Assembly (NCBI GenBank): GCA_033763455.1
Contig: JANRKO010000057.1
Coordinates: forward strand, 1 to 45,014
Direction: 5' to 3'
DNA from: Polyangiaceae bacterium
GTDB taxonomy: Bacteria; Myxococcota_A; Polyangia; Polyangiales; Polyangiaceae
DNA: 45,014 nucleotides
Shown here: piece after piece, positions 17,802 to 35,400 of the stretch
Numbering within the stretch: the stretch's first letter is position 1
Layout: every line of letters begins with the position of its first letter
Notes under the pieces: model-generated
The model's input: only the letters and a program-made list of their open reading frames with translations
Told to the model about the DNA's origin: nothing
The model's database searches: none
Made by a program: the position numbers and the translations under genes

Positions 17802-19604
17802 CTATTTTCGCAGCGCTGAGCGCTTGGCATCGCTCACGGCGGCGTACGTCAGGAAGCGCTGAAAAGCAGCACGGTTCTCGGGAGTTGGGACGCCTTCGTA
17901 ACCAAAGGAGTGCGCTGTTTTGGTGGTGATGAGGCAGGTGACGGCTTCATCGAAGCGCCGCGCTTGGGGCGAAAGATCGCCCGGCTGGGAGCTTGCATCA
18001 GCCAAGCCTTGAACCACATCCCCGAGTTGAGGGCAGTAACCGAGTGTGCGTTCCAGATCGATGTTCTGCGCGCCTTTATCACAGCAATTTCGTTTCATGA
18101 TCGCGGCCGCGGCCAGATCATACCAACCGAGCTCTCCCTGGTAAGGAAGGGCGGCCAGCAATGCAGGATCGGGCCCGGCGTCGGCCTTTTCTCCACGCCG
18201 CGGCTCTTTTGCTCGCGCATCTTCCGCTATTGGGGGCGCGCTTTCTTGGACTTTGCGCTCCGCGTGGGCACGCACCAATGCGAACAAGAGCGAGGTGCCT
18301 TCGGAGAATTTCTTGGTCTGGCAGAAAAAATCCAAGTTCGGGCTGCCGGTGAAGGTTGCGTTGGGAAAGTAGGAAAGCAAACACTGCTCTCTGCTGAACG
18401 GCACCTCTGTTTTGGTGGCGGGCTTTGCAGCGAGTGGCTTGATGCTGCTCGGCACTGGCGCTACCTCGGGCGCCGGTTCCGGTTCGTTCCTCGACATTAC
18501 CACAGCCGCTACCACCGCCGCGGCCCCCGCGCCCGCAAGGAACGCGAGCGGCCAAAGCGGTCGCTTCTTCCTGGCAAACGGCGGTGGCGCGGAACTCTTG
18601 GTGCGAGCTGTGGCACGCGGCTTGGGGCTGGGTTCCCCAACCGCCGCTGGCCAAATGGAATCGTCCGGCCCGATCGAGATCTGAGGTCCGAGCGTGATGT
18701 CCGGCCCTAACGAAGCCTGAGGTCCGCGTGGGGCGGCGCCGTGCATGTCGGCGAGCACGGCCTTCTCGTCCCAAACGAGTGGCTCGTTTTCAGGCAGCAG
18801 ATTGCGCGGTCTGAGCGATAAAGCGTCCCCCACGAATAGTGATGCCGGTAGGCTCTCACCGCGTTCGATTCGATCGAAGGCTTCTCGTATGCGCGTGATC
18901 TTCGTTAAGCGGCGGCCGGCATCCGCCTGAAAAGCGGCAGCGAACAAGCGTTCGAGCTCAGGTTCATTCACACCCCACTGGGAGAGCGGAGCGAGCTTTC
19001 CCAGTGGGACCCGTTCGCGGACTTTCTCGCTGGATTCATTCCCGAACGGCGGTTGACCCGTAATGGCAAAGTATAAGCATGCCAAGAGCGACCACGTGTC
19101 GTCAGCGGCACAAGGCGCTTCGCCGGCAAGTCGTTCGGGCGAAGCATAGGCACCGATAGCGGGTGCAGCTAGTTGAGTGAGCACCGGGGCAATCGCCCGA
19201 CCTTCGGGCTCCACCATGATGGAAAGCGGAGAAATTGCCCCGTGCACAGCCGGCGCTTCGTGCACGGCGGCTAGCGCTTCCAACAGACGGGTGAACCAGA
19301 TGAGCGCCTTGAAGGGATCGATGGGTTTACTTGCGCGCGCCTCCCAGAGCGTTGTTCCTGGAACGTATTCTGCCAAGAATGTTGAGCGGTCCTCTTCTTT
19401 CGTCGAAGTATTGATGAGGGCTAGGTGCCGATGGCGCAGCCCCTTGCGCGCGAGAAGGCGCTCAGCGTGGGCACCCCCCGTGGTCAAAGCCAGGGTGAGT
19501 AAGTTGCTGTTGAGGTCGCGGACCAGAGCTCGCGGCAATGCATCTTGTGATGCCAGGGGCTTTTCGATTCGATGTTGGGCCGGCAGAGCGAAAGGAGATT
19601 CCAT
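17802..19604 (-). CDS. Membrane-anchored Ser/Thr protein kinase-like protein (probable pseudokinase) with Cys-rich extracytoplasmic domain
   Basis: LRHRHL, EYVPGTTL, YASPE, DDTWSL and TGQPPF are kinase subdomains. HRD is replaced by HGA and no DFG is evident. TM WPLAFLAGAGAAAVVAAVVM. Confidence 0.78.
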   Translation of the reverse strand: MESPFALPAQHRIEKPLASQDALPRALVRDLNSNLLTLALTTGGAHAERLLARKGLRHRHLALINTSTKEEDRSTFLAEYVPGTTLWEARASKPIDPFKALIWFTRLLEALAAVHEAPAVHGAISPLSIMVEPEGRAIAPVLTQLAAPAIGAYASPERLAGEAPCAADDTWSLLACLYFAITGQPPFGNESSEKVRERVPLGKLAPLSQWGVNEPELERLFAAAFQADAGRRLTKITRIREAFDRIERGESLPASLFVGDALSLRPRNLLPENEPLVWDEKAVLADMHGAAPRGPQASLGPDITLGPQISIGPDDSIWPAAVGEPSPKPRATARTKSSAPPPFARKKRPLWPLAFLAGAGAAAVVAAVVMSRNEPEPAPEVAPVPSSIKPLAAKPATKTEVPFSREQCLLSYFPNATFTGSPNLDFFCQTKKFSEGTSLLFALVRAHAERKVQESAPPIAEDARAKEPRRGEKADAGPDPALLAALPYQGELGWYDLAAAAIMKRNCCDKGAQNIDLERTLGYCPQLGDVVQGLADASSQPGDLSPQARRFDEAVTCLITTKTAHSFGYEGVPTPENRAAFQRFLTYAAVSDAKRSALRK

Positions 19605-19738
19605 GCCAAATCAGATATCTATCACGGTCCTCGCATTCCAGAAACAAAACGGAAACCCCAAGTAAGGCGTTTTTAGCCGGTTTTCCTAGCTTGGACCCAC
19701 GGCCGCTGGTAAAACGTGGGTGGTTTTGGAGGCGCACC

Positions 19739-22700
19739 ATGGAACTTGAACGTAAAGTTGGTTTGACCGCACACGGCAAGTCCGTTCAGCTGGATGACAA
19801 GAACACGCGGCGGTCGGTGCTGCTCAAGCTTGCAGCCCTCGGCTTCGAGGTGCCCGAACAGACAGGTGACGAGGACCTCTTGGTGCTCGCCCGAGACCTT
19901 TTCGCACGATACCGTGAACAGACGCGCCTCCTCAGCGAACACTTGTGTCCGGCGGATCGGCGCATTCAAGATTTTCTGAACGCTCAGCTGGCGCCGCTGG
20001 GCCCGAATGAAATGGTGCGCTTGCCCGCTGAGACACTCATCCTGGATCGTTACGGCCTTGCCCGGCACCTGAGCCTGCCGGACGGTGGGGACGAGTGGCA
20101 CAACGACGTGGTGAGCAGCTACCGTTTGGCCAACGGGGTCATGCATAACCCCACCAATGATCGCCGCACTACCGCCGGTGTCTTTCATGTGGCGGAGGCG
20201 GGGCTACCCGTGCCAGGTGATAAGCTGGGTGTGCCGCTCATCGCGTATGCCCGCATGTTACGTGAGGCGTTCAATCCGCCCGCAGAGCTGAATCGGCTGC
20301 CCTTCACGGCTAGCTGGGACGAGCCAGTGCATACGATGGCTTCTCTCATGTTACGCCCGCTGGTGTGCCCCGCGGTGGACGGATTTGTCCCTGAGAAACG
20401 GCTTGAGGTGCGGTTCTTTGTTCCAGGTGGTTGCGTTTCCAATCTCGATTTTATCGAAAGTATTTTTGCCAACGCGGGAGATCCGCATTTGCCGGAGAAC
20501 GACGCAGGGTTGGATGTAGATCATTGGACGGGGCACACCGGCTGCGTGGTTTTGGCGCCACATCTAACGCGTCTGAAGAAAAAGGAGCTCGGTTTGCCTC
20601 ACGTGAGCGCAGCCTCGGCTCGTCAAAAAGCATCTGGCATGTGCTGGGAGTCGGAAGATGAGCTCTACAATGGCGGCTCTGCTTTCAAGATCACCCTGCG
20701 CAGTGCAGAGGGAGTGATGGTCACCATTTTGGCCGACAATTACTTTGGGTACTGCAAAAAAGAAGTCAAAACGCAGATTAGCTTTAGCGCCAATTTGTAC
20801 GGGTTGGCTGAAGAAGAACATGCGGGTGGCGCCTTGGCGTTTGCCACTTTCAGCATGGGTGATCGCTTCCTACCGGACGCCCGCTTGCTCAGCACGGATC
20901 ATCGCTTCTCGGACGTACTGGAGCTTCTAAAAGACGGCGTGGAGTTGCACGATTCCGGCTACGCAACAGACGTGGTTTATCCAGAAATCCACTATCTGCC
21001 CGAAGATATGTCGATCGATTTGAAGCAGCAGGATGTCAGCTGGACCAGCAAAGGCGAAGAGCAGCACCTCAAGCTTTTACCCGATCACATTTACATCCAC
21101 CCGAGCGGTTACAAGATCCGGATGGAGAAGCACCCCGCGGCGCCAAGCTGGCGTCTGATTGGCACCGCCCCCGAGGGAACATTCTGCCACAAGCCGTGTA
21201 CGGTATCCGGCGGCGGCAAGTCGGAAATTAGCAAGAGCCTGGTAGATGCCGTGATCTTTGGTCCAATTTATGTCGGCCACTACGAGCAAGAGATGGCGCT
21301 CGTGGATGAGATCTTTAAAAAGGATTACAGCCAGGTGTTCCGCACGCATGGGCGGCGTGATGGGGGCAGTGGAGAGCGTCCGCTTCTATCTTTAGATCGA
21401 TCGCTCGGTTCGGTGGTGAAGCTGCTCACGCCCAACGATGACGTTTTTACTGATGAATATAACACCTGGCTGCGCTCGATCCCGAATCACGTGCGAGCGA
21501 TGGTGTTCATTATTAAGCGCTTCTATCGAACTGATTGGGGCGAGGATTGGCGTCGCCACTTCAGCGTGGATTTTATCAATGGCGCCGAAGGGCATGAGCT
21601 GCGTTACGACGGTCGAAAGCTGGTGGGCTCGTATTTGCGGGTTGGTGTTGGGAAAAATGGCGCATGGCGCACGTACAAGCTACGGCAGGATTTCGTGGCA
21701 GCCGATAAAGTTCAGATGGAAGACGATATCTCAGCCTCCATCGTGGTATCGGCGAGCAAGCTTTTAGGGTTACCAAAAGAGTATGATGGCCACCCGAGCT
21801 TGAAGATTGTTGAGAACTGCGAGTGGCGGTTGTTTCAACGCCCGGACGATGCGATTCACCCAGGTGTCGATCAGCAGGCTGAGCTCGATATGTCCGGCGA
21901 GGGGCTCTTCGTTTCTAACTTCCAACCGCTTCGCCCAGCGGATGTGCGCAAAATCGCAGAAGATGTTTCGCTGCACGATGCCTTTACCCAGCCCATGCGC
22001 AAGCACATCGTGCGTTCGCTGAAGCTGAAAGCGCCATTTAGTGTGTGTTCAGCCAAGCCGCGGCTCGTGGGTGGAAAGCCCACCAAAAATCCTCGCTACT
22101 TGCAGGTACGACCAGATGTAGTGAAGCCCAGGGATCGCTACGTGGCCCACATGGGCGCGCGCTTGTATCGACGGATCCCACTTGAAAAGCCTGTCGTTTT
22201 CCCCGTCATTAGTGTGCTTTCCGGGCGCCGCAATAATCCCCCCGAAGACGGTATTCGACCGCTTTCTGTGTACAGCCCCATCCACTACCAAGAGCTACCC
22301 GAGCTCTTTATGGATTACATCTGTTCGCTCACCGGCAAGTCTCCGAGCACCACAGGCGTAGGTTCCGAAGGCGCGCTCACCAAAGGCCCGTTCAACGCCA
22401 TCAGCGCAACAGCAGATCTGAATAACGCCTTGGTTTCCATGCTGCTCACGGGCTACGCAGGCTTTAGCTCGGCGGCTGGCTACATCGGCACCGACTACAA
22501 GATGGAGCACGACGTGAGCCTGCTCATTCCGGAAATCTGGTGTCGCTTGTTTCCGCACGAGCGCGATCCCAAGCGCATGTTGGAAGCTGGCTACTTGGAG
22601 CCCCTTTTGGACTACGAATTTGAAGGCAAGCCAGTTCTTGCGAGCCGCCTCGGGTACCGAATCACCAGCAAATTCATCCGCACGTTTTTCGGGCGCGTCT

Positions 22701-23260
22701 TCGACAACCCCACAGCCGTGTTCAACGACGAAATTCTAAAGCCCGAAACCCAAGATCCTGCCGTTTTTGCGGATGGCATGCGGAACATCACTGAGGCCCA
22801 AGAGCGCGTAGCTCGTACCTATTTTGAAGATGGATCCGTCAAAGATGCTTGCCCGCCCATCGCTGCGTTGCTCCACATCATGGCCTACGGTCAGTGGGAA
22901 GGGAAAGACGCCCATCATCCCGAGGTGCGCGCCATGTTCACGCGCGAGGCGATGCTGAATAGTGAGTGGTATCGGGCGCGGCTCCTGATCAAACAGCAAA
23001 GGGATATTCTACTTTGGGAGCGCCATGTCGCGTACCTCTCGGATTTCCTCGCACTGCCAAGCCATCGCGCCGAAGCCGAACGGCTTGGTGTGCCCGAGCG
23101 CCTGGAGCAAGCAAAGAGAGAGCTTCAACGAGTTCGGGATAAATCCTACCGAGAGGAGCTCTTCGGCACAATCGGGGCTGATCCGGTGCATGGCGGCGTG
23201 GAGAAAATCGAAGCCATTGGCCGTGGTGATGCTCGCGCTTCAGCTCAGAACATGAATTGA
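19739..23260 (+). CDS. Probable PPi-dependent phosphoenolpyruvate carboxykinase (PPi-PEPCK)
   Basis: 1173 aa. GVMHNPTNDRRTT, DNYFGYCKKEVK, AEEEHAGG, CHKPCTVSGGGKSEISK, EWRLFQRPDDA and GKSPSTTG match my recollection of the Entamoeba/Propionibacterium PPi-PEPCK family. GGAGG RBS before ATG 19739. Confidence 0.82.
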   Translation: MELERKVGLTAHGKSVQLDDKNTRRSVLLKLAALGFEVPEQTGDEDLLVLARDLFARYREQTRLLSEHLCPADRRIQDFLNAQLAPLGPNEMVRLPAETLILDRYGLARHLSLPDGGDEWHNDVVSSYRLANGVMHNPTNDRRTTAGVFHVAEAGLPVPGDKLGVPLIAYARMLREAFNPPAELNRLPFTASWDEPVHTMASLMLRPLVCPAVDGFVPEKRLEVRFFVPGGCVSNLDFIESIFANAGDPHLPENDAGLDVDHWTGHTGCVVLAPHLTRLKKKELGLPHVSAASARQKASGMCWESEDELYNGGSAFKITLRSAEGVMVTILADNYFGYCKKEVKTQISFSANLYGLAEEEHAGGALAFATFSMGDRFLPDARLLSTDHRFSDVLELLKDGVELHDSGYATDVVYPEIHYLPEDMSIDLKQQDVSWTSKGEEQHLKLLPDHIYIHPSGYKIRMEKHPAAPSWRLIGTAPEGTFCHKPCTVSGGGKSEISKSLVDAVIFGPIYVGHYEQEMALVDEIFKKDYSQVFRTHGRRDGGSGERPLLSLDRSLGSVVKLLTPNDDVFTDEYNTWLRSIPNHVRAMVFIIKRFYRTDWGEDWRRHFSVDFINGAEGHELRYDGRKLVGSYLRVGVGKNGAWRTYKLRQDFVAADKVQMEDDISASIVVSASKLLGLPKEYDGHPSLKIVENCEWRLFQRPDDAIHPGVDQQAELDMSGEGLFVSNFQPLRPADVRKIAEDVSLHDAFTQPMRKHIVRSLKLKAPFSVCSAKPRLVGGKPTKNPRYLQVRPDVVKPRDRYVAHMGARLYRRIPLEKPVVFPVISVLSGRRNNPPEDGIRPLSVYSPIHYQELPELFMDYICSLTGKSPSTTGVGSEGALTKGPFNAISATADLNNALVSMLLTGYAGFSSAAGYIGTDYKMEHDVSLLIPEIWCRLFPHERDPKRMLEAGYLEPLLDYEFEGKPVLASRLGYRITSKFIRTFFGRVFDNPTAVFNDEILKPETQDPAVFADGMRNITEAQERVARTYFEDGSVKDACPPIAALLHIMAYGQWEGKDAHHPEVRAMFTREAMLNSEWYRARLLIKQQRDILLWERHVAYLSDFLALPSHRAEAERLGVPERLEQAKRELQRVRDKSYREELFGTIGADPVHGGVEKIEAIGRGDARASAQNMN

Positions 23261-23286: not shown

Positions 23287-24360
23287 TCACGCGGCGTTCG
23301 TGCGTGTTTTGCGCTGGCGTTCTTGGCTCGCGCTAGCGAGCTCTCGGAGTACTTGTTCGGTGGTAGAGAAGTTGATGCAACCGTCGGTCACACTTTGGCC
23401 GTAGGTGAGCCCTTTCCCATTGCCAATCGCCTGCGTGCCTTCCACCAGATGGCTTTCCAAGAGTACGCCCATTACCTCCGAAGAGCCGTCCGCAACTTGC
23501 TGCGCAATGTCCTTTGCTACCGCTGGTTGCCGCCGGTAATCCTTCTCGCTATTGCCGTGGCTAGCGTCGATGAGCACGCGCGGCACTAAGCCTTTTGCCC
23601 TGAGCGCCTGGGCCGCACCGAGCACGTGGTCGCGGCTGTAGTTGGGCCCACTGTTACCCCCGCGCAACACTAAGTGCCCGTCCGCGTTTCCACGCGCATG
23701 CACGATCGCAACTCGGCCGTCACGATCCAGCCCCAAGAACCGATGCGGGTGAGCTGCGGAAAGCATACCGTTGATGGCCACCGAAAGGCTGCCATCCGTT
23801 GCATTCTTGAACCCAACCGGCATCGAAAGGCCACTGGCCATTTCACGGTGCGTTTGGCTTTCCGTGGTTCGCGCACCAATGGCCACCCAGCTGATGGCAT
23901 CCGCCAAATATTGCGGCGTTACCGGATCGAGCATTTCCGTTGCGATGGGCAAGCCGAGCGCGGTGATATCCAGCAAGAGCTTTCTCCCAATGCGTAGCCC
24001 ATGCTCAATATCGCAGCTTTCATCCATGTGCGGATCATTGATGAGCCCCTTCCAACCAAGCGCCGTTCTAGGTTTCTCAAAGTAGACCCGCATCACCACC
24101 AGCAGATCCTCTGAAAGCTCCTGCTCCAGTTGCTTCAGGCGCGTTGCGTACTCGAGGGCAGAGGCGGGGTCATGAATCGAGCACGGGCCCACAATTGCGA
24201 TTAGCCGTCCATCTTTGCCGTGCAAAACAGAACGGATTTGCTCGCGAGCCCGCAGCACGTGGTTGGCTAAGTCTTCTGCCAGGGGAAGTTCGCCAAGAAG
24301 TGCGCGGGGAGCCAAAAGTGAGGTCATTTGCGTTACGTTGAGATCGGAGGTTGTGGTCAT
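23287..24360 (-). CDS. 3-deoxy-D-arabino-heptulosonate 7-phosphate (DAHP) synthase, class I-alpha (AroF/G/H family)
   Basis: GPCSIHD, MRVYFEKPRT, GWKGLINDP, IGARTTESQTHRE, DASHGNS and YGQSVTDGC. Start at ATG 24360, downstream of the attenuator. The specific paralogue cannot be assigned. Confidence 0.96.
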   Translation of the reverse strand: MTTTSDLNVTQMTSLLAPRALLGELPLAEDLANHVLRAREQIRSVLHGKDGRLIAIVGPCSIHDPASALEYATRLKQLEQELSEDLLVVMRVYFEKPRTALGWKGLINDPHMDESCDIEHGLRIGRKLLLDITALGLPIATEMLDPVTPQYLADAISWVAIGARTTESQTHREMASGLSMPVGFKNATDGSLSVAINGMLSAAHPHRFLGLDRDGRVAIVHARGNADGHLVLRGGNSGPNYSRDHVLGAAQALRAKGLVPRVLIDASHGNSEKDYRRQPAVAKDIAQQVADGSSEVMGVLLESHLVEGTQAIGNGKGLTYGQSVTDGCINFSTTEQVLRELASASQERQRKTRTNAA

Positions 24361-24386
24361 GGGGACTGCGATGGGTGGGGCTGAGA

Positions 24387-24423
24387 ACAAAACCAAAAAC
24401 CCCGGTCGTTGTGGCGACCAGGG
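24387..24423 (-). terminator. Attenuator terminator hairpin upstream of DAHP synthase
   Basis: Minus strand CCCUGGUCG-CCACAA-CGACCGGGG (9 bp, one G-U pair) followed by UUUUUGGUUUUG. Confidence 0.85.
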
Positions 24424-24476
24424 CTACGTGTGGACCTAGAAAACGATACGCTCAATAGGTCAGGCCTGGACGCCAC
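24411..24476 (-). promoter_or_regulatory. Antiterminator pairing of the aromatic attenuator
   Basis: GUGGCG-U-CCAGG (24476-24465, inside the leader) is complementary to CCUGG-U-CGCCAC (24422-24411, terminator 5' arm and loop), 11 of 12 positions. Confidence 0.8.
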
Positions 24477-24523
24477 GCCGAAGCGCGCCAATATCCAAAC
24501 CAAAATTGAAAGCGACCGTTCAC
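24452..24523 (-). CDS. Aromatic amino acid-rich leader peptide MNGRFQFWFGYWRASAWRPGLTY
   Basis: GTG..TGA, 23 aa with 3 Phe, 3 Trp and 2 Tyr, directly upstream of the terminator and the DAHP synthase. An in-frame TTG at 24532 would add two more Phe. Confidence 0.85.
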   Translation of the reverse strand: MNGRFQFWFGYWRASAWRPGLTY

Positions 24524-24960
24524 GAAAAACAATATGGCAGACCAGCCGCGGGAGGGCAAGCATCACCCCGGACGTACGGAAAGCTCACACCGGCGCCCGC
24601 GCTGGGTCCGGCCACAGACCGGGGAGATCCGAACGCCGAAGCCGCACACCGGTGCGACGAGGTGCACTCCGTGGGGTTCCAGGCCGTTGCCGGGGGCAGC
24701 TTCGCAGCGTGTGGAAGATGCTTGTCATGACAAGTATCTGTTCATAGCGCGCAATCAGGCTTTCTCTTGACCCACTGGTTTGAAATTTGTTCTGTCGCCG
24801 GAAGCCACACCTTCGGCGGGCTGGGATCGCACCGTTTGGCGTGGGCTACGCTCTGATAAGGGTGCCCCTTGTGCTACCTTGCGCCGAACCTCGGGCTCGG
24901 CTTGGCTCCTTTCCAAAGCTCTTTAGAGGCTCGTTACCAAGTACCGCGGAGACGCCGCCA

Positions 24961-25938
24961 ATGATCACCCGCTCCATCCTTCTTACCGCAATCACTCTGT
25001 TAGCCCTCACGTCGACGGCTGGTGCTCACATTCAGCTGGTCGAGCCGAAGGCGAGGATCCCAAATGATCCTGGGATAAAGATGGGTCCTTGCGGCGGGGC
25101 GGTGTGGGGCGCAAACGGAACCACAACGTTCGCTCCTGGGCAGCAGATCACGCTCAAGATTGTCGAAACCATATCTCACGACGGTGCTTTTCGTGTTGCG
25201 ATGGACTTGGATGGCGACAACGACTTCACGCCAATGGTGAACAGTCAGGTCTTCGCGGACTTTCAGACATTCTTCGGTGGTGGAACTCCGGCAAATCAAC
25301 TCCCTGCGGAGGTGACGACATCCGTAACGGAGGGCAACATGCTCGTGCTCCGTAACTTTTACGGCTCTCACCCAGGAGGCGCCTGCCCTAGTGGCGTAAT
25401 GGAGTCCACTAACGGGGAGGAGGGCTGCGTCTGGAATATCAGCGTCACGCTTCCCACACAGCACTGTGAGACTTGTACACTCCAGGTAATCCAGATGATG
25501 TCAGAACCGGGCCGCGCTTACGGTAACGGCTTCTATTATCATTGTGCAGACATCAAGATCACAGGAGAGCCCACGGACAACACGGGCGGCGCCGGCAATA
25601 CTGGAGGTAGTTCCGCGAGTGCAGGCGGAGCGGCCAGCGGTGGCAACTCCAACGGCTCTGGAGGCGTCGCGTCTTCAGCAGGTGGGGCTGCAAGCGCTAC
25701 TGGAGGCAAGAGTACCGGTGGTGCTGGCCCCATCGCTTCGGGGTCGGGCGGAGCCAAGAGCATGACCACCGGTGGCGCACCTGTAGCCGGAACTGCCTCA
25801 CCGCAAGGCGCGGGCACCGAAGAGGATTCTGGCTGCGGAATCGCAGGGCGCGCATCCTCAAAGTGGGCCTGGCTGGCACCCCTTGGGCTAGCCGCTTTGC
25901 TTGCACGGCGAGCGCGGGCGAAGAAACATCTGAGCTAG
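24961..25938 (+). CDS. Secreted LPMO-like His-brace protein (SCE4755-like) with MYXO-CTERM sorting signal
   Basis: Signal peptide ...TAGA|H leaves His1. KMGPCG, ISHDGAFR, CETCTLQVIQ and YYHCADI follow, then a Gly/Ser/Thr/Ala linker and the C-terminus SGCGIAG..WAWLAPLGLAALLARRAR. Confidence 0.8.
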   Translation: MITRSILLTAITLLALTSTAGAHIQLVEPKARIPNDPGIKMGPCGGAVWGANGTTTFAPGQQITLKIVETISHDGAFRVAMDLDGDNDFTPMVNSQVFADFQTFFGGGTPANQLPAEVTTSVTEGNMLVLRNFYGSHPGGACPSGVMESTNGEEGCVWNISVTLPTQHCETCTLQVIQMMSEPGRAYGNGFYYHCADIKITGEPTDNTGGAGNTGGSSASAGGAASGGNSNGSGGVASSAGGAASATGGKSTGGAGPIASGSGGAKSMTTGGAPVAGTASPQGAGTEEDSGCGIAGRASSKWAWLAPLGLAALLARRARAKKHLS

Positions 25939-27118: not shown

Positions 27119-28855
27119 TCATTGGGCGTTCGATTCCGTAACGCGCTGCGCATCCAGAATACGATACGCTGCCCAATGCACGGGCGCGTTTTTCGCGGCC
27201 AGGCGATCGACAAAAGCAAGCCAGGCGGCTTGTGGTGGGGAAGAGAAACGAGAGACTAGCTGGAGCTGCAACATCTTTCGTGATGCGTCCGGTTCCCCAA
27301 GGGCGGCCTGCCTAACTTGTTGCACCAAGGCCTCAGGGTAACGCTCCACCGGACGACCCGCAGCGTTAGTTTCTACAACCAGCAGCGTCGGTGGGCGTCC
27401 TCGGACGGCTTGCTCAAGAAATAGGTGCGGGTAGGTCCAGCTGGCGTCGACTCCTTGCAAGCCTCCGTATACCTCGGGCGCAGAGGCCAAATCTTGCACC
27501 ACGCGCTGGGGCCGCTCCCGCCGAACCAGCTCAAGCAACGCCTCCACGCTAGCTGCGCGCTTATCATTCCACAGCGTTGGGTACCAGAAGAACGGCCTTA
27601 CAAGGAACGCTCCGGCCAGGGTAGCGGCTGCGGCAATCGTCCAAAATCTGCCAGGAGCCCAGTGCTCACGCGTGCGATTTGTTCCGAGCACCACTGCCGA
27701 CATGAGACCAAGCAAGCATAGGTCGAGCGCTAACTGCCCCCACGCGCCGTAGCGCCCCAACACAATGGCTATGGCGCTCACCAGCATGGAATGAACAAAC
27801 AAGCGTCGGAACTCAGGTGCTGATTGCACCCATAGGCTGACGCCTAGAGCAATGAATACGGCGACAACAGGAGCGGTAGGCGTGTAGTTGCGCGCATTGA
27901 CGGCGGCCACGGCGTGCCCATCAGGCAGACCGAGCCAGCCTTTAGGAAAGACTACCAGCGTATTCAGGAGCAAATAGTGAATGCCGATCGTTCCCACTAA
28001 CAACAACAATGTGAAGCGGTCGTTCTTTGAAGAAAATAGCCTCGGAGCACCAAAAATCCCAACGAAGAGCCAGGGCAATGCTGGCGCGGCTAACACGGCT
28101 GGCAACCCGCTGAGCACGTTGTAACGCAAAACGCCTGAAAGGCCCCAGCTCCGAAAGGAGGCGTAGGAGCTGTGACTAAACCAGAACAGATCGTGAGACG
28201 CTAGAATGCCAGCGCCCACCCAGAGAACAAACGGTAACCCTGCCAAGACTAGCGGGAGCCACCAGCCCCAGCGCCGGATGCTGCTAGCATCGCGTTCGCG
28301 CCAGCAAGCGAGCGCCAGCCACGCGCCGATGAATCCCGTCACCGGCAACATTTCCGCGCGACAAAGTGGCACAAGGCCCGCACAAAGACCGGCCAATGCG
28401 CGCTTTTGGTGCACGAGGCATAACCAAAGCGAGAGCGCGACGAAGAATGCCGCGGGCACTTCGGTCATGGTGACAAAGGCGTCTTTCAATACGGCCATTT
28501 GTGCCGCGAAAAATACCACCGCAAACCAGAGCCCATTCGCCAAATGAGTTGGAACTAACCGTTGGCAGAGCAGTGCGGTAAGGAAGCCCGTTGCCACCGT
28601 TAGCCCGACGCTCACTAGGCGGGCAGCGTGTAGGCCCAGAAGCCCTGCCACACCGTAGAGCAAGCCAGTAAGAGGCTTGTTCCAAACGTCCAGGAGCCAG
28701 GCGCTCACGTTCAAGGTCGAGACTTGCTGGAAGCTGCGGGCGAAGTGCTGGTACGAGTCGTCGTCTAACCGCAAGCCGCTTACCAAGCTCGCGCACGTTA
28801 GCAGTACCAGGAGAACCCCTAGTGCGACGTGTAGCCGAGACTGCTCCGTTAACAA
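27119..28855 (-). CDS. Polytopic membrane protein, probable GT-C glycosyltransferase
   Basis: First TM then LDDDSYQH, WNKPL, MTEVPAA and PLCRAE motifs, about 12 TMs. Confidence 0.68.
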   Translation of the reverse strand: MLTEQSRLHVALGVLLVLLTCASLVSGLRLDDDSYQHFARSFQQVSTLNVSAWLLDVWNKPLTGLLYGVAGLLGLHAARLVSVGLTVATGFLTALLCQRLVPTHLANGLWFAVVFFAAQMAVLKDAFVTMTEVPAAFFVALSLWLCLVHQKRALAGLCAGLVPLCRAEMLPVTGFIGAWLALACWRERDASSIRRWGWWLPLVLAGLPFVLWVGAGILASHDLFWFSHSSYASFRSWGLSGVLRYNVLSGLPAVLAAPALPWLFVGIFGAPRLFSSKNDRFTLLLLVGTIGIHYLLLNTLVVFPKGWLGLPDGHAVAAVNARNYTPTAPVVAVFIALGVSLWVQSAPEFRRLFVHSMLVSAIAIVLGRYGAWGQLALDLCLLGLMSAVVLGTNRTREHWAPGRFWTIAAAATLAGAFLVRPFFWYPTLWNDKRAASVEALLELVRRERPQRVVQDLASAPEVYGGLQGVDASWTYPHLFLEQAVRGRPPTLLVVETNAAGRPVERYPEALVQQVRQAALGEPDASRKMLQLQLVSRFSSPPQAAWLAFVDRLAAKNAPVHWAAYRILDAQRVTESNAQ

Positions 28856-28977
28856 CGGCGCGGAGACTAGAGGAGCCCGCCTATGCCCACAAGAGTACGG
28901 CCCCGCCTGAATTTCGTGACGGGAGAACGCGCTTAGACTACACGCAAAAGAGCACCCCCTTCATTGCCCCCAAAGAA

Positions 28978-29901
28978 ATGCCCTCGCTCAAAACCACCCC
29001 TGACGAGATTGTGCGCTGGCTCGGCCTGCGGTTTCGTGTCCCGTGTGATTGGCAGATGGTGCGCCACAGCAAAAACCCCGAGAAGGGCTCGGTGGTGTTT
29101 GTGGATAGGCGGCGGGAGCGATTAGAGGTGCACTGGCAAGATTGTTCGAACGAGCCGGATCTAGAACGCATGGTTGATAACCAGCGCTCGTTAGCGAAAA
29201 AGCAGGATCCTGAGGCGCACACAGAGTTTCTGCGGGGGCTCGGCAATTGGCGCGGGCTGCGCACGCAATCTAAAGGGGCCGTGTTGAGCCGGGCTGTGCG
29301 TTTTGATCCGAAGACGCAACGCTTGGTGGATTTGGTCGTAAGTTCCTCGGAAGACGAAGACGTGAGCGATTTTTTTCCGTGGTTCTGCCGACACGTTGAA
29401 GTTGAGGCCAAAGGCCCTGACGCGTTGCGGTGGGCCTGCTTTGACATCGATCTCACCATGCCCGAGGGCTACAGGTTGCGCGATGCGGACATAAAGCCGT
29501 GCGACGCCTCTCTCGAATTTGAAGAAGTTGAGGCCGAAGGTGAGGCGCGGGTGCGAAGGCGCATCCGAGTCCGCCGGTTGGGTTTGGTCGACTCTTGGTA
29601 CACAGGCGATCCCGCGGGGCTGCTCCGGGCTCAGTCCGCCAAGCTAAGATTCAACGAGTTTACCCAACTCACGGAGGGGACTCATCCGGCGACCGAAGGC
29701 CGCGCGGTCGAGCCGACCACCTTAATCCCTAGGCTTGCCGGCCGGCAGGTGCATGCTCGGGTGCGGCTTTGGCATTGCGAGCCAGAAAACGCCTTGTACG
29801 AGGTCACATGCTCGGGCTATCGGAGTGCGCCCAATTGGCCCACCGATTTGAAGGTACACTGCCGCCCCCACGACCATGACCCGGGCTCCCGAGAAGCTTG
29901 A
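28978..29901 (+). CDS. Hypothetical soluble protein with apparent internal duplication (first gene of transporter operon)
   Basis: Two similar segments, WLGLRFRVPCDWQM and WACFDIDLTMPEGYRL. No signal peptide or TM. The stop overlaps the next gene. Confidence 0.65.
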   Translation: MPSLKTTPDEIVRWLGLRFRVPCDWQMVRHSKNPEKGSVVFVDRRRERLEVHWQDCSNEPDLERMVDNQRSLAKKQDPEAHTEFLRGLGNWRGLRTQSKGAVLSRAVRFDPKTQRLVDLVVSSSEDEDVSDFFPWFCRHVEVEAKGPDALRWACFDIDLTMPEGYRLRDADIKPCDASLEFEEVEAEGEARVRRRIRVRRLGLVDSWYTGDPAGLLRAQSAKLRFNEFTQLTEGTHPATEGRAVEPTTLIPRLAGRQVHARVRLWHCEPENALYEVTCSGYRSAPNWPTDLKVHCRPHDHDPGSREA

Positions 29902-30256
29902 TCCCTCTCAGATGCTCGATCTGGTGCCTGCCGCCAATCGTGCGGTCCGGGCGGAAGAGCGCGGTCAGACTCTGATCCTCTACGTTCCGATTCAGCGGCG
30001 CTGGTGGATGCGTGGTCCGTTCGGGTGGCTGCTTCCGTTTCGAAAGGAGAAGGGGATTGCCCTCGACTCCTTAGGGCGAGAGGTCTGGGAAGCTTGTGAT
30101 GGCACGCGCACGATTGAGGATATCGCTGAGGGTTTTGCCGCGCGCCACCGCGTGAGATTTCATGAAGCGAAGCTAAGCGTCACCACCTTCCTGCGTTCGC
30201 TCGTTGAGCGCCGGGTCGTGGTGCTCGTGCTTACGGAGCCGGTGAACAGCCAATGA
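29876..30256 (+). CDS. PqqD-family / RiPP recognition element (RRE)-like protein
   Basis: LDSLGREVWEACDGTRTIEDIA...AKLSVTTFLRSLVERRVV is the PqqD winged-helix signature. Confidence 0.85.
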   Translation: MTRAPEKLDPSQMLDLVPAANRAVRAEERGQTLILYVPIQRRWWMRGPFGWLLPFRKEKGIALDSLGREVWEACDGTRTIEDIAEGFAARHRVRFHEAKLSVTTFLRSLVERRVVVLVLTEPVNSQ

Positions 30257-31722
30257 AGGCGATTGTTGCAAAGAGTCAGGTGGCCCTAGGGCCTGCTCGG
30301 GGTGCCCAGCTTGCGCTTTCCGGCATGTCGTACCGGATGTTTCGCTCTGCAGTTACGATCGCGATCTTGGCGCTCGCCACCGCCTTTCTCGTGCACATGT
30401 TGGTTTATGGCCTTTTAGCGGGTCAAACCGAGCGAAATGCCTACCGTGATCTGCAGCGGTTGCGCGCGTTTGGCGAACAGATCACCCGCCTCGCGCATGT
30501 GGATGCGCCGACGAAGATCATGGCCACCTTGGCCGCGGGTGAGCCGTCGCGCTTGCGTGAATACCGCGGCTGGGCCAAGGGCGATGCGAGCGAGTTTGAC
30601 CGCGCTCATCGTGTCGCTGAACGCCTCTCACGTGTTCGCCAGTCGCTCGTGGAATTGCCGCCCACCGCGCAAGCTGTGCTGCTTGGTGATCTCACAGCGG
30701 ACGAACTCCTTGAGTCTCTTCGTCAACCGGAGCAGCTCACGTTGTTCACCAAGAAGCTCGCACAACTTCAGCTCGGCTCCCAAGCAATCGATCAAGTCGA
30801 GCTCGTGCGTTTGGTAAGCACGGAAATGGGCGCGTTGCACGACGTGACGGCTCGCATCGGTGCGGGGCATCTCGCAGCTGTGACCAGCTTTGCGGCTCAC
30901 TATCCTGAAAAAAGTGCGGAGGTGATCGCGGCGGAGCCCCCAGCTGATTTTGAGCGCACGCTCCAGAAACTAGGGTTTTTCAAGGATGCGGAGCTCTCGG
31001 AGCTCGCAGCATTCGCGAGCAATGCCCGCGACGAGCGCACCATCGGGGAGCTTCTGCTAGAGGCGGATGTTCGCAGCCAAGTCGCTCGCGAGCTGAACCT
31101 TTTGCCCAAAGATGTCGATCTCAAGAAGACTCTCGCGTATGCGGCGGACGGTGGGCACGCAGAATGGTTGGCGGGTGTGCTCGCTCAGGTAAGCGCTCCC
31201 AAGAACCTTACCGGTGAACGAGTACACGAGCTGGCCGAAGCGTACGGTCGTCGCTCAACTCTAGAGGAGATGCTCGGAGATCGCGTGCCAAATGACGGCG
31301 GGGGTTTCTTGGGTTTGCCCGAAAGGCTGCGTTGGTTGGTGGTGCTTTCTTTCTTGGTGTGCGTTGTTGGCGTGGCCAATGCCATGTTGATGAGCGTTAC
31401 CGAGCGTTTCACTGAAATCGCCACGATGAAGTGCCTGGGGGCGATGGACGGCTTTGTGATGATGATGTTCGTGTTTGAGGCGGCTATTCAGGGCGTGATT
31501 GGCGGCCTGGCTGGCCTCGTGCTTGGGTTATTGCTGGCGGCGTTACGCGGAGCCGTTGAATATGGTGGCCTGTTTTTCGCATTCGACGGCATGGGGCTGC
31601 AGCTTCTTCTTGCAACGCTGCTTTCCTTGTTGGTGGGTGTCGTCCTGGCTGCCTTGGCGGCGGTAGGCCCGTCCTGGGTCGCGGCCCGCCTCTCACCGAT
31701 GGAAGCAATGCGGGTCGAATAA
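30253..31722 (+). CDS. FtsX/MacB-type (type VII) ABC permease
   Basis: N-terminal TM, large extracytoplasmic domain, GVANAMLMSVTERFTEIATMKCLGA and AARLSPMEAMRVE. ATGA overlap with the PqqD gene. Confidence 0.9.
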   Translation: MKAIVAKSQVALGPARGAQLALSGMSYRMFRSAVTIAILALATAFLVHMLVYGLLAGQTERNAYRDLQRLRAFGEQITRLAHVDAPTKIMATLAAGEPSRLREYRGWAKGDASEFDRAHRVAERLSRVRQSLVELPPTAQAVLLGDLTADELLESLRQPEQLTLFTKKLAQLQLGSQAIDQVELVRLVSTEMGALHDVTARIGAGHLAAVTSFAAHYPEKSAEVIAAEPPADFERTLQKLGFFKDAELSELAAFASNARDERTIGELLLEADVRSQVARELNLLPKDVDLKKTLAYAADGGHAEWLAGVLAQVSAPKNLTGERVHELAEAYGRRSTLEEMLGDRVPNDGGGFLGLPERLRWLVVLSFLVCVVGVANAMLMSVTERFTEIATMKCLGAMDGFVMMMFVFEAAIQGVIGGLAGLVLGLLLAALRGAVEYGGLFFAFDGMGLQLLLATLLSLLVGVVLAALAAVGPSWVAARLSPMEAMRVE

Positions 31723-32483
31723 TGCAGGAAATGCGCCCCAGAGAGGCTCCGAAGAAAGCCGTCATCATCCGCACGCTTGGGCTCGAGAAGAGCTACGGCA
31801 TGGGTGATGCCACCACCTATGCTTTGCGGGGTGTCGCCGCCACTATCTACCGCTCCGAATTCATTGCCGTAATGGGCCCTTCGGGCTCCGGCAAGAGCAC
31901 CTTCTTCAACATGATCGGCGCACTCGATGCGCCTAGCAAAGGGCGTATTCTGATCGACGAAGTGGATGTGGCTCAGCTTTCCGCTGTTGAGCTCGCTTTC
32001 CTTCGCTGTCAGAAGATCGGCTACATCTTTCAGAGTTACAACCTCATCCGCTACATGACGGCACTTGAGAACGTTACCGTTCCGATGACGTTCGCGGGCG
32101 TGGTGCCCGAAGAGGCTCGGCGCCGTGGCCTCGATCTTTTGGAGCTCGTAGGCTTGAAGGAGCGCTGGGCGCACAGGCCAAGCGAGATGAGCGGCGGCCA
32201 ACAACAACGCGTGGCAATCGCCCGGTCTATGAGCAACAACCCCAAAATCCTCTTGGCAGACGAGCCCACAGCCAATCTCGATTTCAAAACGGGGCAAGAT
32301 ATTCTTGAGATCCTGCAGCGTATTAATCGAGAGCGGGGCGTTACCATCGTGTGCTCGACACACGACCACCGTCTGTTGAACGTTTGCGATCGCATCATGT
32401 GGATTCGTGATGGCCTCGTCGAACGCGTTGAGGAGCGAGAAAACATTCGGATCAAGCTCGGTACCATCGGCGGTGAAGCATGA
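31722..32483 (+). CDS. ABC transporter ATP-binding protein (LolD/MacB-type)
   Basis: [25 protein letters not shown] and STHD. TAATG overlap with the permease. Confidence 0.95.
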   Translation: MQEMRPREAPKKAVIIRTLGLEKSYGMGDATTYALRGVAATIYRSEFIAVMGPSGSGKSTFFNMIGALDAPSKGRILIDEVDVAQLSAVELAFLRCQKIGYIFQSYNLIRYMTALENVTVPMTFAGVVPEEARRRGLDLLELVGLKERWAHRPSEMSGGQQQRVAIARSMSNNPKILLADEPTANLDFKTGQDILEILQRINRERGVTIVCSTHDHRLLNVCDRIMWIRDGLVERVEERENIRIKLGTIGGEA

Positions 32484-35400
32484 GACATTGGTTGCGAATC
32501 GTCGCAGTACTTTTGCTGGCCTTAAGTGGTTCTTGGATTTGTGGGTCGCTTTTGGCCCACGCCGAAGACGCGCCGCAGAAAAGCGCTGATCCATCGGTTG
32601 TCTCACAGGGAACTCCTTCGTCCGCGTCCGCAGCGGGGGCACCGTCGGTGTCAGAGCAGGCTGCAGCGGGTGCGGGGGGCGCCGCTCAGATTGCTGATCG
32701 ACCGCTGACTCGAGAGGAGAACGCTTTTCTTTTTGACCTCCAACAGCTTACCAAACATCCGCACCGCTTAGCCGGCTCGCGCAATGGTTTTGAGGCGGCC
32801 GAGTACATTACGGCTCAGCTTGGGCACATGGGCCTCCAAACGTTCTTTGTCGACATGCCCGTGTGGCAGATGGAGACCGAGCGGTCGGAACTCTTGGTTA
32901 ACGGGCAGCGAGTTCAGGTTCACACCATGAGGCCCAATATCTCGGCCCTGTCCGTTACAGGTCCCGAGGGCGTGAGTGGGCCGCTGCGCTATGTCGGAAA
33001 AGGAACCTTGGAGGCCTACGGTGAGCGCGGGGTGGAGGGCGCTATCGTTGTGCTTGACTACGATAGCACCGGAGGCTGGCAACGTGCGTTTGCGTACGGT
33101 GCCAAGGCTGTGCTGTTCTTGGGCCATGGCGACGCCGTTGCGTCCGAGCCGAGAAATTCCGGCGTTCCCGCCAACTGGGTGCGGGCCTATGTTTCGGCGG
33201 ATCAGACCGCGGTCGATCTCACGCGCGATTACGACAAGGCCGAGCTCTTCATTGAAGGTCGCTGGCGGCGCACGGAAGGTCGAAATATTGTCGCGCGCAT
33301 TGCCGGCACCGCACCGGGCTTCGCCGGTGAAGGGGGCCAAGCTGAAGCCGTGGTGCTCTCTGCCAATTACGATACTTTTGGGGTCGTCCCGGAGCTTTCG
33401 CAAGGAGCACGGGGTGCAGCGAACGTGGCGGCGCTGTTAGAGGCCGCACAGGTGCTCAAACAAAACCCACCCAAACGCGACGTTATCCTGATGTTTTTGG
33501 ACAATCAGGCGCGTTACCACCAGGGTGCACGGGAAGTCTACGAAGCGTGGTTGTCCGATGCGGATGAGCTCACGCGTCGCGGCGAGGAGCACAGAAAAGA
33601 GTTGCTCCATGTGCGCGCGATGTCGCTTTTGCTTGAGAAGAATGGGCTCCTGTTCGATCGCGCCCCGGAGCCGCCGGGCGGTGGAGCCGCCAAGATTTGG
33701 CTCAAGCGCGCCCTGGTAGAAGCAGCCAATTTTAAGCGCGACGACGTGCGAAAGATCGTGGAGGTGATGCGCCTCAAAGCGGGGCGTGCTGGAGCCGTCG
33801 AGATTGCTCCCGAGGTTCGTCGCTTGGAGGCTGAGGCCCTGCGTTGGGACGAAATCCGACGAGCGCTTCATCAAGGTGCGCTTTCGGCCTTTGTTGAAGG
33901 TCAGGCGCGTGGCGGTGCAAACAAAGGAGAGGCCAAGCTCTACCAGACTCTCTTCCAACAACTTCAAGCAGCCTCAGGTTCACGTTTTAAGAAACGCCTG
34001 AATGAGCTCACCGCTCTGGTCGAAATGGACGATCAGAAGGTTGCGTTGCGCAAGGTGCTGGCCCCCGAGGGCAAGCCGCTGTTTATCGTGTTCCACGCGC
34101 AATATAATCTTTCGGATGGTGGCGCCACGTGGGGTGTTGTTGTCGGGGATTGGACCTACGCCCTCACGCCGTGGCGCTTACCGGCGGCTGGCACGGACGC
34201 TCCCGGGTATTACGGTGGGCTGCTCGGCGCGTTGCGCGCGACCTCAAGCCTCATTCCCCAAACGGTGAACCAGCTCGATCCCAGGACACTCACCGATCCC
34301 CTCTTTGGTCTCACGTTCGCGCCCGCGCCGTTTGCAGTTTCCAGTTCGATCGCCGGCACCTACGGCATCTACAACTTTGCTCTCATGAGCGGTGCTGATC
34401 GTCGTCCACGTGACGGGCAGCCTACCGACACGTTAGGCCGTTTGAACTGGGCCAGAGTTGAGCGTCAGGGGCTCGAAGCCACCCATCTCATGGCGGCCGC
34501 TGCGAGCTCCGCTGAAGTATCCTTGCCCCGAGTGCTCGCCGCGCAGAAGTTGAGTCGATACCCCACCTGGGACAGCGGCTCTCAAGGGGGAGATTACGCG
34601 GGGCTACAGGTCAGCGGGAGCCTGGCTGAAGATCGCCCCGCCGGCGGCGCCATGATTGCGTTGTGGCCGGGCAGTATAGCCTTTGCAGGTGCGGGAGAAG
34701 CTTGGTCGTCTTTGAAGGACGCCCAGGTTATTGCTGATTTTGAGCCGTTTGCGCTCGAGCCCGTGGATCAGAACGGTCGCTTTCGTCTGCTGGGGCTTCG
34801 GAACGATGTCCACTCCGAGATCATGGTGCTCGGCAGCTTGTTCGACCCAAATGGACGCATTCAAGCCATTAGCACGCAAGAAGGACAGGTGAAGCTCGCC
34901 ACCGAGCTTATTCGGAGCAACCTCTTCTTTGGTGAACAATATCGTTGGATGGCGCGTCGCGGCTTCGAGAGTGACCCGAAGCGCTTCAAGCTGCTCAAGG
35001 CCAATTCAGACTCGGCCTTCAGGACGAACCGTTCGCTCTGGGGGCAGCTAGGCGATCAGTATTTCGCCTATGTGTCGGATCAGATTGTCGATCGCCGGCT
35101 CAAGGTGTTCCAGGTGATGGGTGCTGCCGCGCTTGGCCCCTTCTCACCAAAGTCTCCGTACGGATCTGGGCTCGATCCAAAGGAAGTTTCTGGGAGCTTC
35201 TCGATTGCAGACAACTCCGCCAACGATCTCTGGAATCTGAACGAGGCTCGCCTAGGGCAGCTTCGGGTCCGCGGGGTGACAAGCCCCGACATTGAAGTTT
35301 TGCACAGCCGTGCGCTTCGCATCAAAGAACAAGCTAAAGCGGAGCCAGATCTTGCCAAGCAGGCAGGCGCGTTCGCTCGAAGTGCGGCGCTTTCACAGCG

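Follow-up and report, generated by a model that had tools for sequence, protein, structure and literature searches.

A class I 3-deoxy-7-phosphoheptulonate (DAHP) synthase gene in a Polyangiaceae bacterium is preceded by a short open reading frame (ORF) crowded with aromatic codons and by a strong terminator, which raises the question of whether the three together form a regulatory switch on the first common step of aromatic amino acid synthesis. The gene lies in a stretch of 45,014 nucleotides (nt) that was analysed in full and is referred to as the window (GenBank assembly GCA_033763455.1, contig JANRKO010000057.1, positions 1 to 45,014 of the forward strand). A preliminary description of this DNA proposed a ribosome-dependent attenuator that senses phenylalanine (Phe, F), tryptophan (Trp, W) and tyrosine (Tyr, Y). 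The present analysis supports an attenuator of this type, which withstood each computational test capable of refuting it: the small ORF (sORF), the terminator and the alternative pairings between them are conserved in relatives, the leaders retain F, W and Y together in 22 of 24 cases, the spacing of the elements is consistent with a ribosome-operated switch, and a promoter-like motif lies upstream. Judged from its sequence, the element is very probably a classical ribosome-mediated (leader-peptide) transcription attenuator controlling one class I DAHP synthase gene. Its parts, in the order in which they would be transcribed, are as follows.

24554 to 24559, minus strand: promoter-like -35 hexamer TTGCCC, assigned from consensus only
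24531 to 24536, minus strand: promoter-like -10 hexamer CATATT, 17 nt past the -35 hexamer and 7 nt before the GTG, assigned from consensus only
24452 to 24523, minus strand: leader ORF of 23 codons plus stop, (M)VNGRFQFWFGYWRASAWRPGLTY, with its start aligned with the family start codons
24488 to 24511, minus strand: aromatic codon cluster, codons 5-12 (TTT CAA TTT TGG TTT GGA TAT TGG), corresponding to the family consensus R-F-x-F-W-F-G-Y-W
24463 to 24501, minus strand: hairpin 1:2 (anti-antiterminator), -21.9 kcal/mol, whose 5' arm GGTTTGGAT (24501-24493) lies within codons 8-11; from folding and alignment
24465 to 24476, minus strand: region 2, antiterminator strand GTGGCGTCCAGG, codons 16-20, complementary at 11 of 12 positions to 24422-24411
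24411 to 24422, minus strand: region 3, terminator 5' arm and first loop bases, CCTGGTCGCCAC, whose partner is either region 2 or the terminator 3' arm
24388 to 24424, minus strand: intrinsic terminator, -18.8 kcal/mol, with stem 24424-24399 (10 pairs, 6-nt loop CCACAA) and U-tract TTTTTGGTTTTG at 24399-24388
23287 to 24360, minus strand: class I (AroF/G/H-type) DAHP synthase, 357 amino acids (aa), monocistronic; from profile matches

The leader ORF runs on the minus strand from a GTG at 24523-24521 to a TGA at 24454-24452, and its 23 codons translate as V(M)NGRFQFWFGYWRASAWRPGLTY. Six of its residues are aromatic (F5, F7, W8, F9, Y11 and W12) and all fall within codons 5-12, as the preliminary description had stated. 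The same description held the leader to be absent from the list of ORFs; this is correct for the GTG form, but a longer in-frame form starting with TTG (24452-24559) is present in the mechanical list, and the in-frame TTG codons at 24532 and 24559 are possible alternative starts. The arrangement is unlikely to have arisen by chance. Aromatic codons make up 9.4% of the 10,621 codons in 17 ORFs of the window, which gives a probability of 1.7e-5 for at least six in a given stretch of eight codons. Furthermore, among 1257 terminator-like sites in the 6.56-Mb assembly of the same organism, the sORF before the DAHP synthase gene is the only one that reaches six aromatic residues in eight. The strongest argument is the recurrence of the arrangement upstream of orthologous genes.

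The terminator has a G+C-rich stem, and its U-tract ends 27 nt before the DAHP synthase ATG, which lies at 24360 on the minus strand (the distance had been put at about 30 nt). Upstream of it, the proposed antiterminator strand in codons 16-20 was borne out as complementary at 11 of 12 positions to the 5' arm and loop of the terminator. Region 2 cannot join the 1:2 and 2:3 structures together, nor can region 3 join both 2:3 and 3:4; the alternative structures are thus mutually exclusive. Folding of the window leader yielded both of the suspected alternatives: the minimum-energy fold of the full-length leader combines 1:2 with 3:4 (-56.1 kcal/mol), and the fold switches to 2:3 (-41.6 kcal/mol) when the terminator 3' arm is masked.

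Recurrence was examined at several taxonomic distances, with the organism's own genome included in each count. A DAHP synthase search in 41 related genomes gave a match in 19. Three same-genus orthologues, 74-75% identical, are preceded by VNGRFRFWFGYW... leaders and a terminator, and more distant genera carry variant leaders (MYAPSRLYYFGYYPA..., MLARWPLFWSFYWPA... and MFVSRNFWFFWY...); the reverse-complement control of this first leader scan scored 0 of 109. Nine examples were used to build a covariance model of 141 positions and 26 pairs, spanning the 1:2 hairpin and the terminator; it matched 16 of 151 genomes in a family sample and 9 of 151 in an order sample, the latter including 2 of 23, 5 of 15 and 1 of 10 genomes in families f1, f3 and f7, respectively. 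The single match among 151 genomes of the class sample was the organism itself, and the phylum sample gave four of 151. Three of those four (L132-L134, E 5e-4 to 7e-4) were rejected as bare terminators with neither a DAHP synthase nor an aromatic sORF. The real matches come from 22 distinct genomes of one order, probably Polyangiales (Myxococcota), with one match per genome, and all 22 stand directly upstream of a class I DAHP synthase on the same strand, as located by tblastn. In addition, a named set of 80 public loci was retrieved via the DAHP synthase protein, and two metagenome-assembled genomes (MAGs) in it also carry the element, one labelled Polyangiaceae (L048, MASRRFFWFGYWRAETAATGSSL) and one labelled Myxococcales (L051, MLSRRHFWFGYWPAQAAATGSSL). 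The DAHP synthases of these two MAGs group tightly with that of a same-family genome in a FastTree tree, which makes Polyangiaceae the probable family of the window and the term myxobacteria in the preliminary description a reasonable one. The family figures are taken from a set of 24 aligned members, and the aromatic sORF, the terminator and the alternative pairings are conserved upstream of these orthologues.

In all 24 members the leader ORF starts where the alignment places the start codon (offset 0-8 nt), with 16 ATG and 8 GTG starts, and its consensus reads M-x-x-R-F-x-F-W-F-G-Y-W-[P/R]-A-x-x-[R/A]-[R/A]-x-G. The six best consensus columns are aromatic in 17 to 24 of the leaders. Phe and Tyr occur in the cluster of every leader and Trp in 22, so that the three are found together in 22 of 24; the means per cluster are 2.5 F, 1.6 W and 1.7 Y. 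Aromatic residues make up 28% of the leader frame and 6-7% of the other two frames, a comparison that is partly circular given that the frame was picked by its aromatic content. Aligned positions exchange one aromatic residue for another (for example W to Y or F to Y), and both synonymous codons are in use for Phe (41 TTT and 18 TTC, 59 in total) and for Tyr (23 TAT and 17 TAC, 40 in total). Since residues are swapped among the aromatics and synonymous codons alternate, these patterns argue that aromatic codon identity is itself conserved, beyond the nucleotide sequence. The conserved C-terminal half of the leader (RRPG or AATG) is explained by the antiterminator strand encoded there.

For comparison, TTT accounts for 44% and TAT for 31% of their codon pairs in the 17 ORFs of the window, and a comparison across genomes needs the codon table of each genome. 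The preference for TTT and TAT in the clusters could come from the pairing needs of region 1 or from a preference for slower codons.

The codon patterns bear on a different kind of switch, in which an RNA-binding protein, an uncharged tRNA or a small molecule would operate the attenuator and the aromatic codons would be incidental to RNA pairing. The aromatic codons do overlap the 5' arm of the 1:2 hairpin (UGGUUUGG), where RNA structure could by itself conserve part of the sequence, and the leader ORF has no visible Shine-Dalgarno sequence. However, the reading frame and the start and stop positions are conserved, the cluster varies in nucleotides and keeps its aromatic identity, and the regulated pathway makes exactly Phe, Trp and Tyr. 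Furthermore, when both strands of 24200-24900 were compared with Rfam by cmscan at E<=10, the only result was a weak likeness to the Pseudomonas small RNA P15 (16.4 bits against a gathering score of 70), with no match to T-box or to the Trp, Phe, His, Leu and Thr leader families. A switch of this other kind is considered very improbable.

The pairings were counted on the covariance-model alignment of the 24 sequences, which was fitted to the 1:2 helices, so that the counts lean their way. The terminator helix is 93.5% paired, with six pairs changed on both sides, and the two consensus helices of 1:2 are 74.7% and 86.5% paired, with four changed pairs each. The antiterminator pairing was not part of the model. 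Of its 281 cells, 83.3% are paired, and the figure drops to 33-56% if the partner is shifted by 1-3 columns. Double-sided changes occur at three of its pairs, such as U-A to C-G where the arm ends, with A-U, G-U and G-C in the interior, and its covariation score was reached by none of 500 shuffles.

A ribosome-operated switch depends on the spacing of its elements. In 23 of 24 sequences, 11-17 nt (median 15) separate the start of the cluster's last aromatic codon from region 2, and the leader stop codon lies 2-18 nt past region 2. This spacing of codons, antiterminator and stop fits the logic of a ribosome footprint. Folding of complete leaders at equilibrium with a ribosome mask was abandoned as unusable for testing a kinetic switch; in its place, transcripts were cut just before the terminator 3' arm, 28 nt were masked around the ribosomal A site, and the remainder was folded. 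With the A site on aromatic codons, the terminator 5' arm paired with region 2 at a mean probability of 0.77, and the best aromatic codon of each cluster gave a 2:3 pairing of at least 0.6 in all 24 sequences. About two codons beyond the last aromatic codon the 2:3 pairing drops to around zero, and with the A site on the stop codon it averages 0.09 (at most 0.3 in 22 of 24). In this model the aromatic codons mark the last positions where a ribosome can pause and keep the antiterminator strand available, and all six aromatic codons of the window leader lie within that zone.

In 21 of 24 members, a promoter-like motif (TTGCnn-N16-18-nAnnnT) occupies the same position immediately before the leader. 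A stricter form, TTGnnn-N16-18-TAnnnT ending 5-23 nt before the start codon, occurs in 16 of 24, compared with 9 of 2400 random windows from the same loci. The site in the window agrees with 8 of 12 consensus positions and falls below the threshold of the promoter scan, and its distance of 7 nt from the -10 hexamer to the start codon is identical in the three same-genus orthologues. Transcription is likely to start upstream of the leader and not downstream of it, as far as the motif indicates; from its position, the TTG codons at 24532 and 24559 would then lie inside or before the promoter. In most members the putative -10 element ends only 6-14 nt before the leader start codon, and because of this proximity the leader ORF may begin at, or within a few nt of, the RNA 5' end and possibly be leaderless.

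A unit with its own promoter-like motif and a strong terminator could also be an independent gene for a small RNA of about 135 nt or for a micropeptide, next to a DAHP synthase gene with a separate promoter, and the likeness to P15 (E 0.63) points faintly the same way. This is hardly credible, given that all 22 matches lie immediately upstream of a DAHP synthase on the same strand with one per genome, that the terminator 5' arm is complementary to a conserved strand within the leader ORF, and that the 27 nt between U-tract and ATG do not suffice for a separate promoter and leader; no promoter-like site was found in that interval. P15 itself scores far under its threshold, and Pseudomonas and Pseudomonadales DAHP synthase loci yielded nothing similar. 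P15 was dropped as an analogous leader and put down to chance, with no P15 match at one Pseudomonas locus (L096), one Pseudomonadales locus (L063) or two loci of the family.

Several observations weigh against a ribosome-mediated attenuator. The first group concerns translation of the leader: no Shine-Dalgarno sequence is visible before the ORF and its start codon in the window is GTG, so the ORF might not be translated at all, or might be read from another start, at the TTG codons at 24532 or 24559. The second concerns the pairings. Covariation in the antiterminator is thin: only four cells show double-sided changes, and its count of such pairs is attained in 32 of 500 shuffles; the support is real but owes most to the fact that related genomes share the sequence. 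A further hairpin, located between region 2 and the terminator, is weakly supported as well, with 59.7% pairing across the family. Furthermore, the element is present in a minority of the sampled relatives.

The remaining objections come from folding energetics. Full-length equilibrium folds with the ribosome mask keep the terminator: its mean pair probability is 0.86 in the absence of a ribosome and still 0.79 when one sits on aromatic codons, and it falls below 0.5 in just 5 of 24. According to these folds, the switch would therefore have to be kinetic. The decision in classical attenuators is held to be kinetic. Even without a ribosome, truncated transcripts reach a mean 2:3 pairing of 0.37, only 12 of 24 are at or below 0.3, and the window transcript stands at 0.81 (-41.6 vs -35.5 kcal/mol). 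The 1:2 hairpin is thus not thermodynamically dominant, and it can hold region 2 solely by being made first.

A further point of this kind concerns the amino acids to which the attenuator would respond. In Corynebacterium glutamicum, the leader aroR stands before the DAHP synthase gene aroF, and only Phe limitation raised transcription through this attenuator, with Tyr availability having no effect, according to the accessible part of the report (PMC11802643). The Polyangiales leader could likewise answer to one amino acid, most likely Phe or else Trp, with the other aromatic codons being minor. Phe codons are the most numerous in the family means given above, which suits Phe, and Trp is missing from two of the 24 leaders. 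On the other hand, all three amino acids are retained in 22 leaders and Tyr in every one, aligned positions swap among F, W and Y with no drift to other residues, and all six aromatic codons of the window leader lie in the zone that leaves region 2 free. A response to a single amino acid is therefore regarded as possible but rather unlikely.

The ribosome-mediated attenuator would operate as follows. The sequence elements are shown directly, along with their mutual exclusivity, conservation and spacing; from them we infer that the leader is translated, where transcription begins, that it terminates in the cell, and the relevance of each of the three amino acids. Transcription would begin at the promoter just upstream of the leader ORF, and a ribosome would translate the 23-codon leader as RNA polymerase advances. 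When Phe-, Trp- or Tyr-tRNA is scarce, the ribosome would stall in codons 5-12, where it covers region 1 and leaves region 2 free. The freed region 2 would then pair with the emerging terminator 5' arm, no terminator would form, and the DAHP synthase gene would be transcribed. A ribosome that reaches the stop codon would cover region 2, which would allow the terminator to form and end transcription 27 nt before the gene; alternatively, the 1:2 hairpin would sequester region 2 with the same outcome.

The regulated gene is identified by profile matches, with 496 bits to TIGR00034 aroFGH (cut-off 173) and 516 bits to NF009395. The preliminary description further suggested that the leader controls entry to the shikimate pathway. 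It does precede a class I DAHP synthase, but the genome holds a second one (contig C23:144740-145783, L021), 51% identical to the window protein, and neither an aromatic sORF nor a terminator was found upstream of that gene. Because of this leaderless paralogue, the attenuator would tune one of two isozymes rather than access to the pathway as a whole. For a rough phylogeny, 118 DAHP synthases were placed in a quick FastTree tree, from which five partial or interrupted sequences had been dropped (L028, L037, L096, L127 and L129). In it the leader-bearing enzymes cluster, with 4 label changes compared with 21.3 for shuffled labels, and the C23 gene falls in a separate clade of 19 leaderless myxobacterial paralogues with a support of 100. 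These relationships suggest that the genome holds one attenuated and one non-attenuated DAHP synthase isozyme. Elsewhere in the same genome, no leader or terminator was found upstream of a trpE-like gene and two prephenate dehydratase genes. A crude scan of the genome for sORFs enriched in one amino acid before terminators revealed no convincing further attenuator, and candidates on contigs C88, C31, C23, C6 and C40 were rejected because they lie in or beside unrelated ORFs.

Other aromatic leaders were seen at further loci. Upstream of the DAHP synthase at locus L029 (G016:C28), an sORF whose cluster reads RFWTWFSY precedes a strong terminator of another kind, which lies well ahead of the gene. 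This locus is unmatched by the covariance model, and its DAHP synthase sits on a long branch among the leader-bearing genes; on sequence evidence it is probably a diverged member of the leader family. A crude scan covered 77 of the 80 named loci (three were omitted, as their stored DNA is shorter than 2600 nt) and scored only L035, L048, L063 and an unconvincing L038, with 1 of 77 in the reverse-complement control. At L063:1000-1179, from a Pseudomonadales MAG, an sORF (...GGYWFFTS) and then a U-tailed hairpin stand before a class I DAHP synthase gene. At L035:1025-1200, from a MAG labelled Planctomycetota, the sORF MCPQFWFTGYRLRLLD and a U-tailed hairpin likewise precede a class I DAHP synthase, and the terminator arm resembles that of the Polyangiales family. 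Both L035 and L063 lie outside Myxococcota, their sORFs end in or are rich in aromatic residues, and both are unmatched by the covariance model at E<=0.01. The DAHP synthase of L049, a MAG labelled Rhizobium sp. Q54, is nearly identical to that of Synechococcus sp. CS-1332 (branch lengths 0.005 and 0.027) and lies inside a picocyanobacterial clade, which makes mis-binning the most likely explanation for this contig. In Pseudomonas sp. UMAB-08 (L096:3044-3189), Rfam clearly identifies the small RNA P14 (70.9 bits, gathering score 45) downstream of the DAHP synthase gene; it is unrelated to the leader.

The gene has a convergent downstream neighbour and a divergent upstream one, and further ORFs of the window lie beyond the latter.

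19538 to 23260, plus strand: convergent downstream neighbour, ORF of 1240 aa with no Pfam match at E<=1e-5
24787 to 25938, plus strand: divergent upstream neighbour with a BIM1-like domain
27119 to 28855, minus strand: ORF of 578 aa with no Pfam match at E<=1e-5
28822 to 29901, plus strand: ORF of 359 aa with no Pfam match at E<=1e-5
30253 to 37531, plus strand: FtsX-like permease, ABC ATPase and a 1683-aa protein with FtsX and peptidase M28 domains, a run that resembles an ABC-type exporter, one fused component of which is unusually large

The closest known counterpart, the aroR-aroF attenuator of C. glutamicum, was reportedly described by Neshat et al. in 2014. Its leader, aroR, contains a Phe-Tyr-Phe motif upstream of aroF, as the accessible parts of four papers describe (PMC11802643, PMC4046766, PMC3890552, PMC7356990), and in the portion seen of one of them ribosome stalling on the aromatic codons raises aroF transcription (PMC11802643). 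The preliminary description named trpL and pheL as responding to a single amino acid, but its background was incomplete in lacking this precedent, as far as the available sections of two of these papers go (PMC11802643, PMC4046766). Both systems place a short leader with mixed aromatic codons before a DAHP synthase gene, a likeness that is functional only, to judge by what is accessible on aroR. They differ in phylum (Myxococcota against Actinomycetota), in the longer Polyangiales cluster of five to seven aromatic codons, in the presence of Trp in 22 of 24 leaders, and in the conserved promoter-like motif with a leader ORF that may start at or near the 5' end.

Compared with trpL and pheL of Escherichia coli, as summarised in the accessible part of one source (PMC11802643), the Polyangiales element shares the four-region logic, with codons in or before region 1, the 1:2, 2:3 and 3:4 structures and a U-tract. 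A further shared feature, within the same partial account, is the position of the stop codon, at which a terminating ribosome lies over region 2. Unlike those leaders, which in that account serve a single amino acid and the terminal Trp or Phe branch, it mixes three amino acids and would control the first common step. The enterobacterial thr and ilv operon attenuators are multivalent leaders for which a response to several amino acids has been demonstrated. The Polyangiales leader resembles them in that one leader carries codons of several amino acids made via the regulated genes; it differs in its amino acids and targets, and its own multivalent response is one that we infer only. The mechanism is textbook, with a Corynebacterium precedent for the same target; in Polyangiales it comes with a three-amino-acid codon mix and a possibly leaderless leader ORF. 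In agreement with the preliminary description, no account of a leader-peptide attenuator in myxobacteria was found in the full-text literature searched, which leaves most subscription journals outside its coverage.

A bolder proposal joins three claims. The leader would be a multivalent sensor, in which starvation for any of Phe, Trp or Tyr relieves termination of one of two isozymes; its translation would be leaderless or nearly so, with the start codon, a GTG in this genus, 7 nt past the -10 hexamer and initiation at the 5' end forming part of the timing between ribosome and polymerase; and it would belong to a widespread, repeatedly invented and largely undescribed class of 'whole-pathway' aromatic attenuators. 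Taken together and read from sequence, this combination is speculative and on the whole doubtful.

Control of DAHP synthase by a leader-peptide attenuator had so far been documented in Corynebacterium, and the finding carries it into another phylum, which is a gain in scope and not in principle. Myxobacteria use aromatic precursors heavily for secondary metabolites. As far as the searched literature shows, regulation of entry to their shikimate pathway had not been described, and a concrete cis-element is now defined, with coordinates for promoter, leader, switch and terminator and with 24 natural variants to compare. The presence of a probably attenuated and a non-attenuated DAHP synthase in one genome hints at a division of labour between them. 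For strain engineering in Polyangiaceae, deletion of the leader element should deregulate the first step of the pathway.

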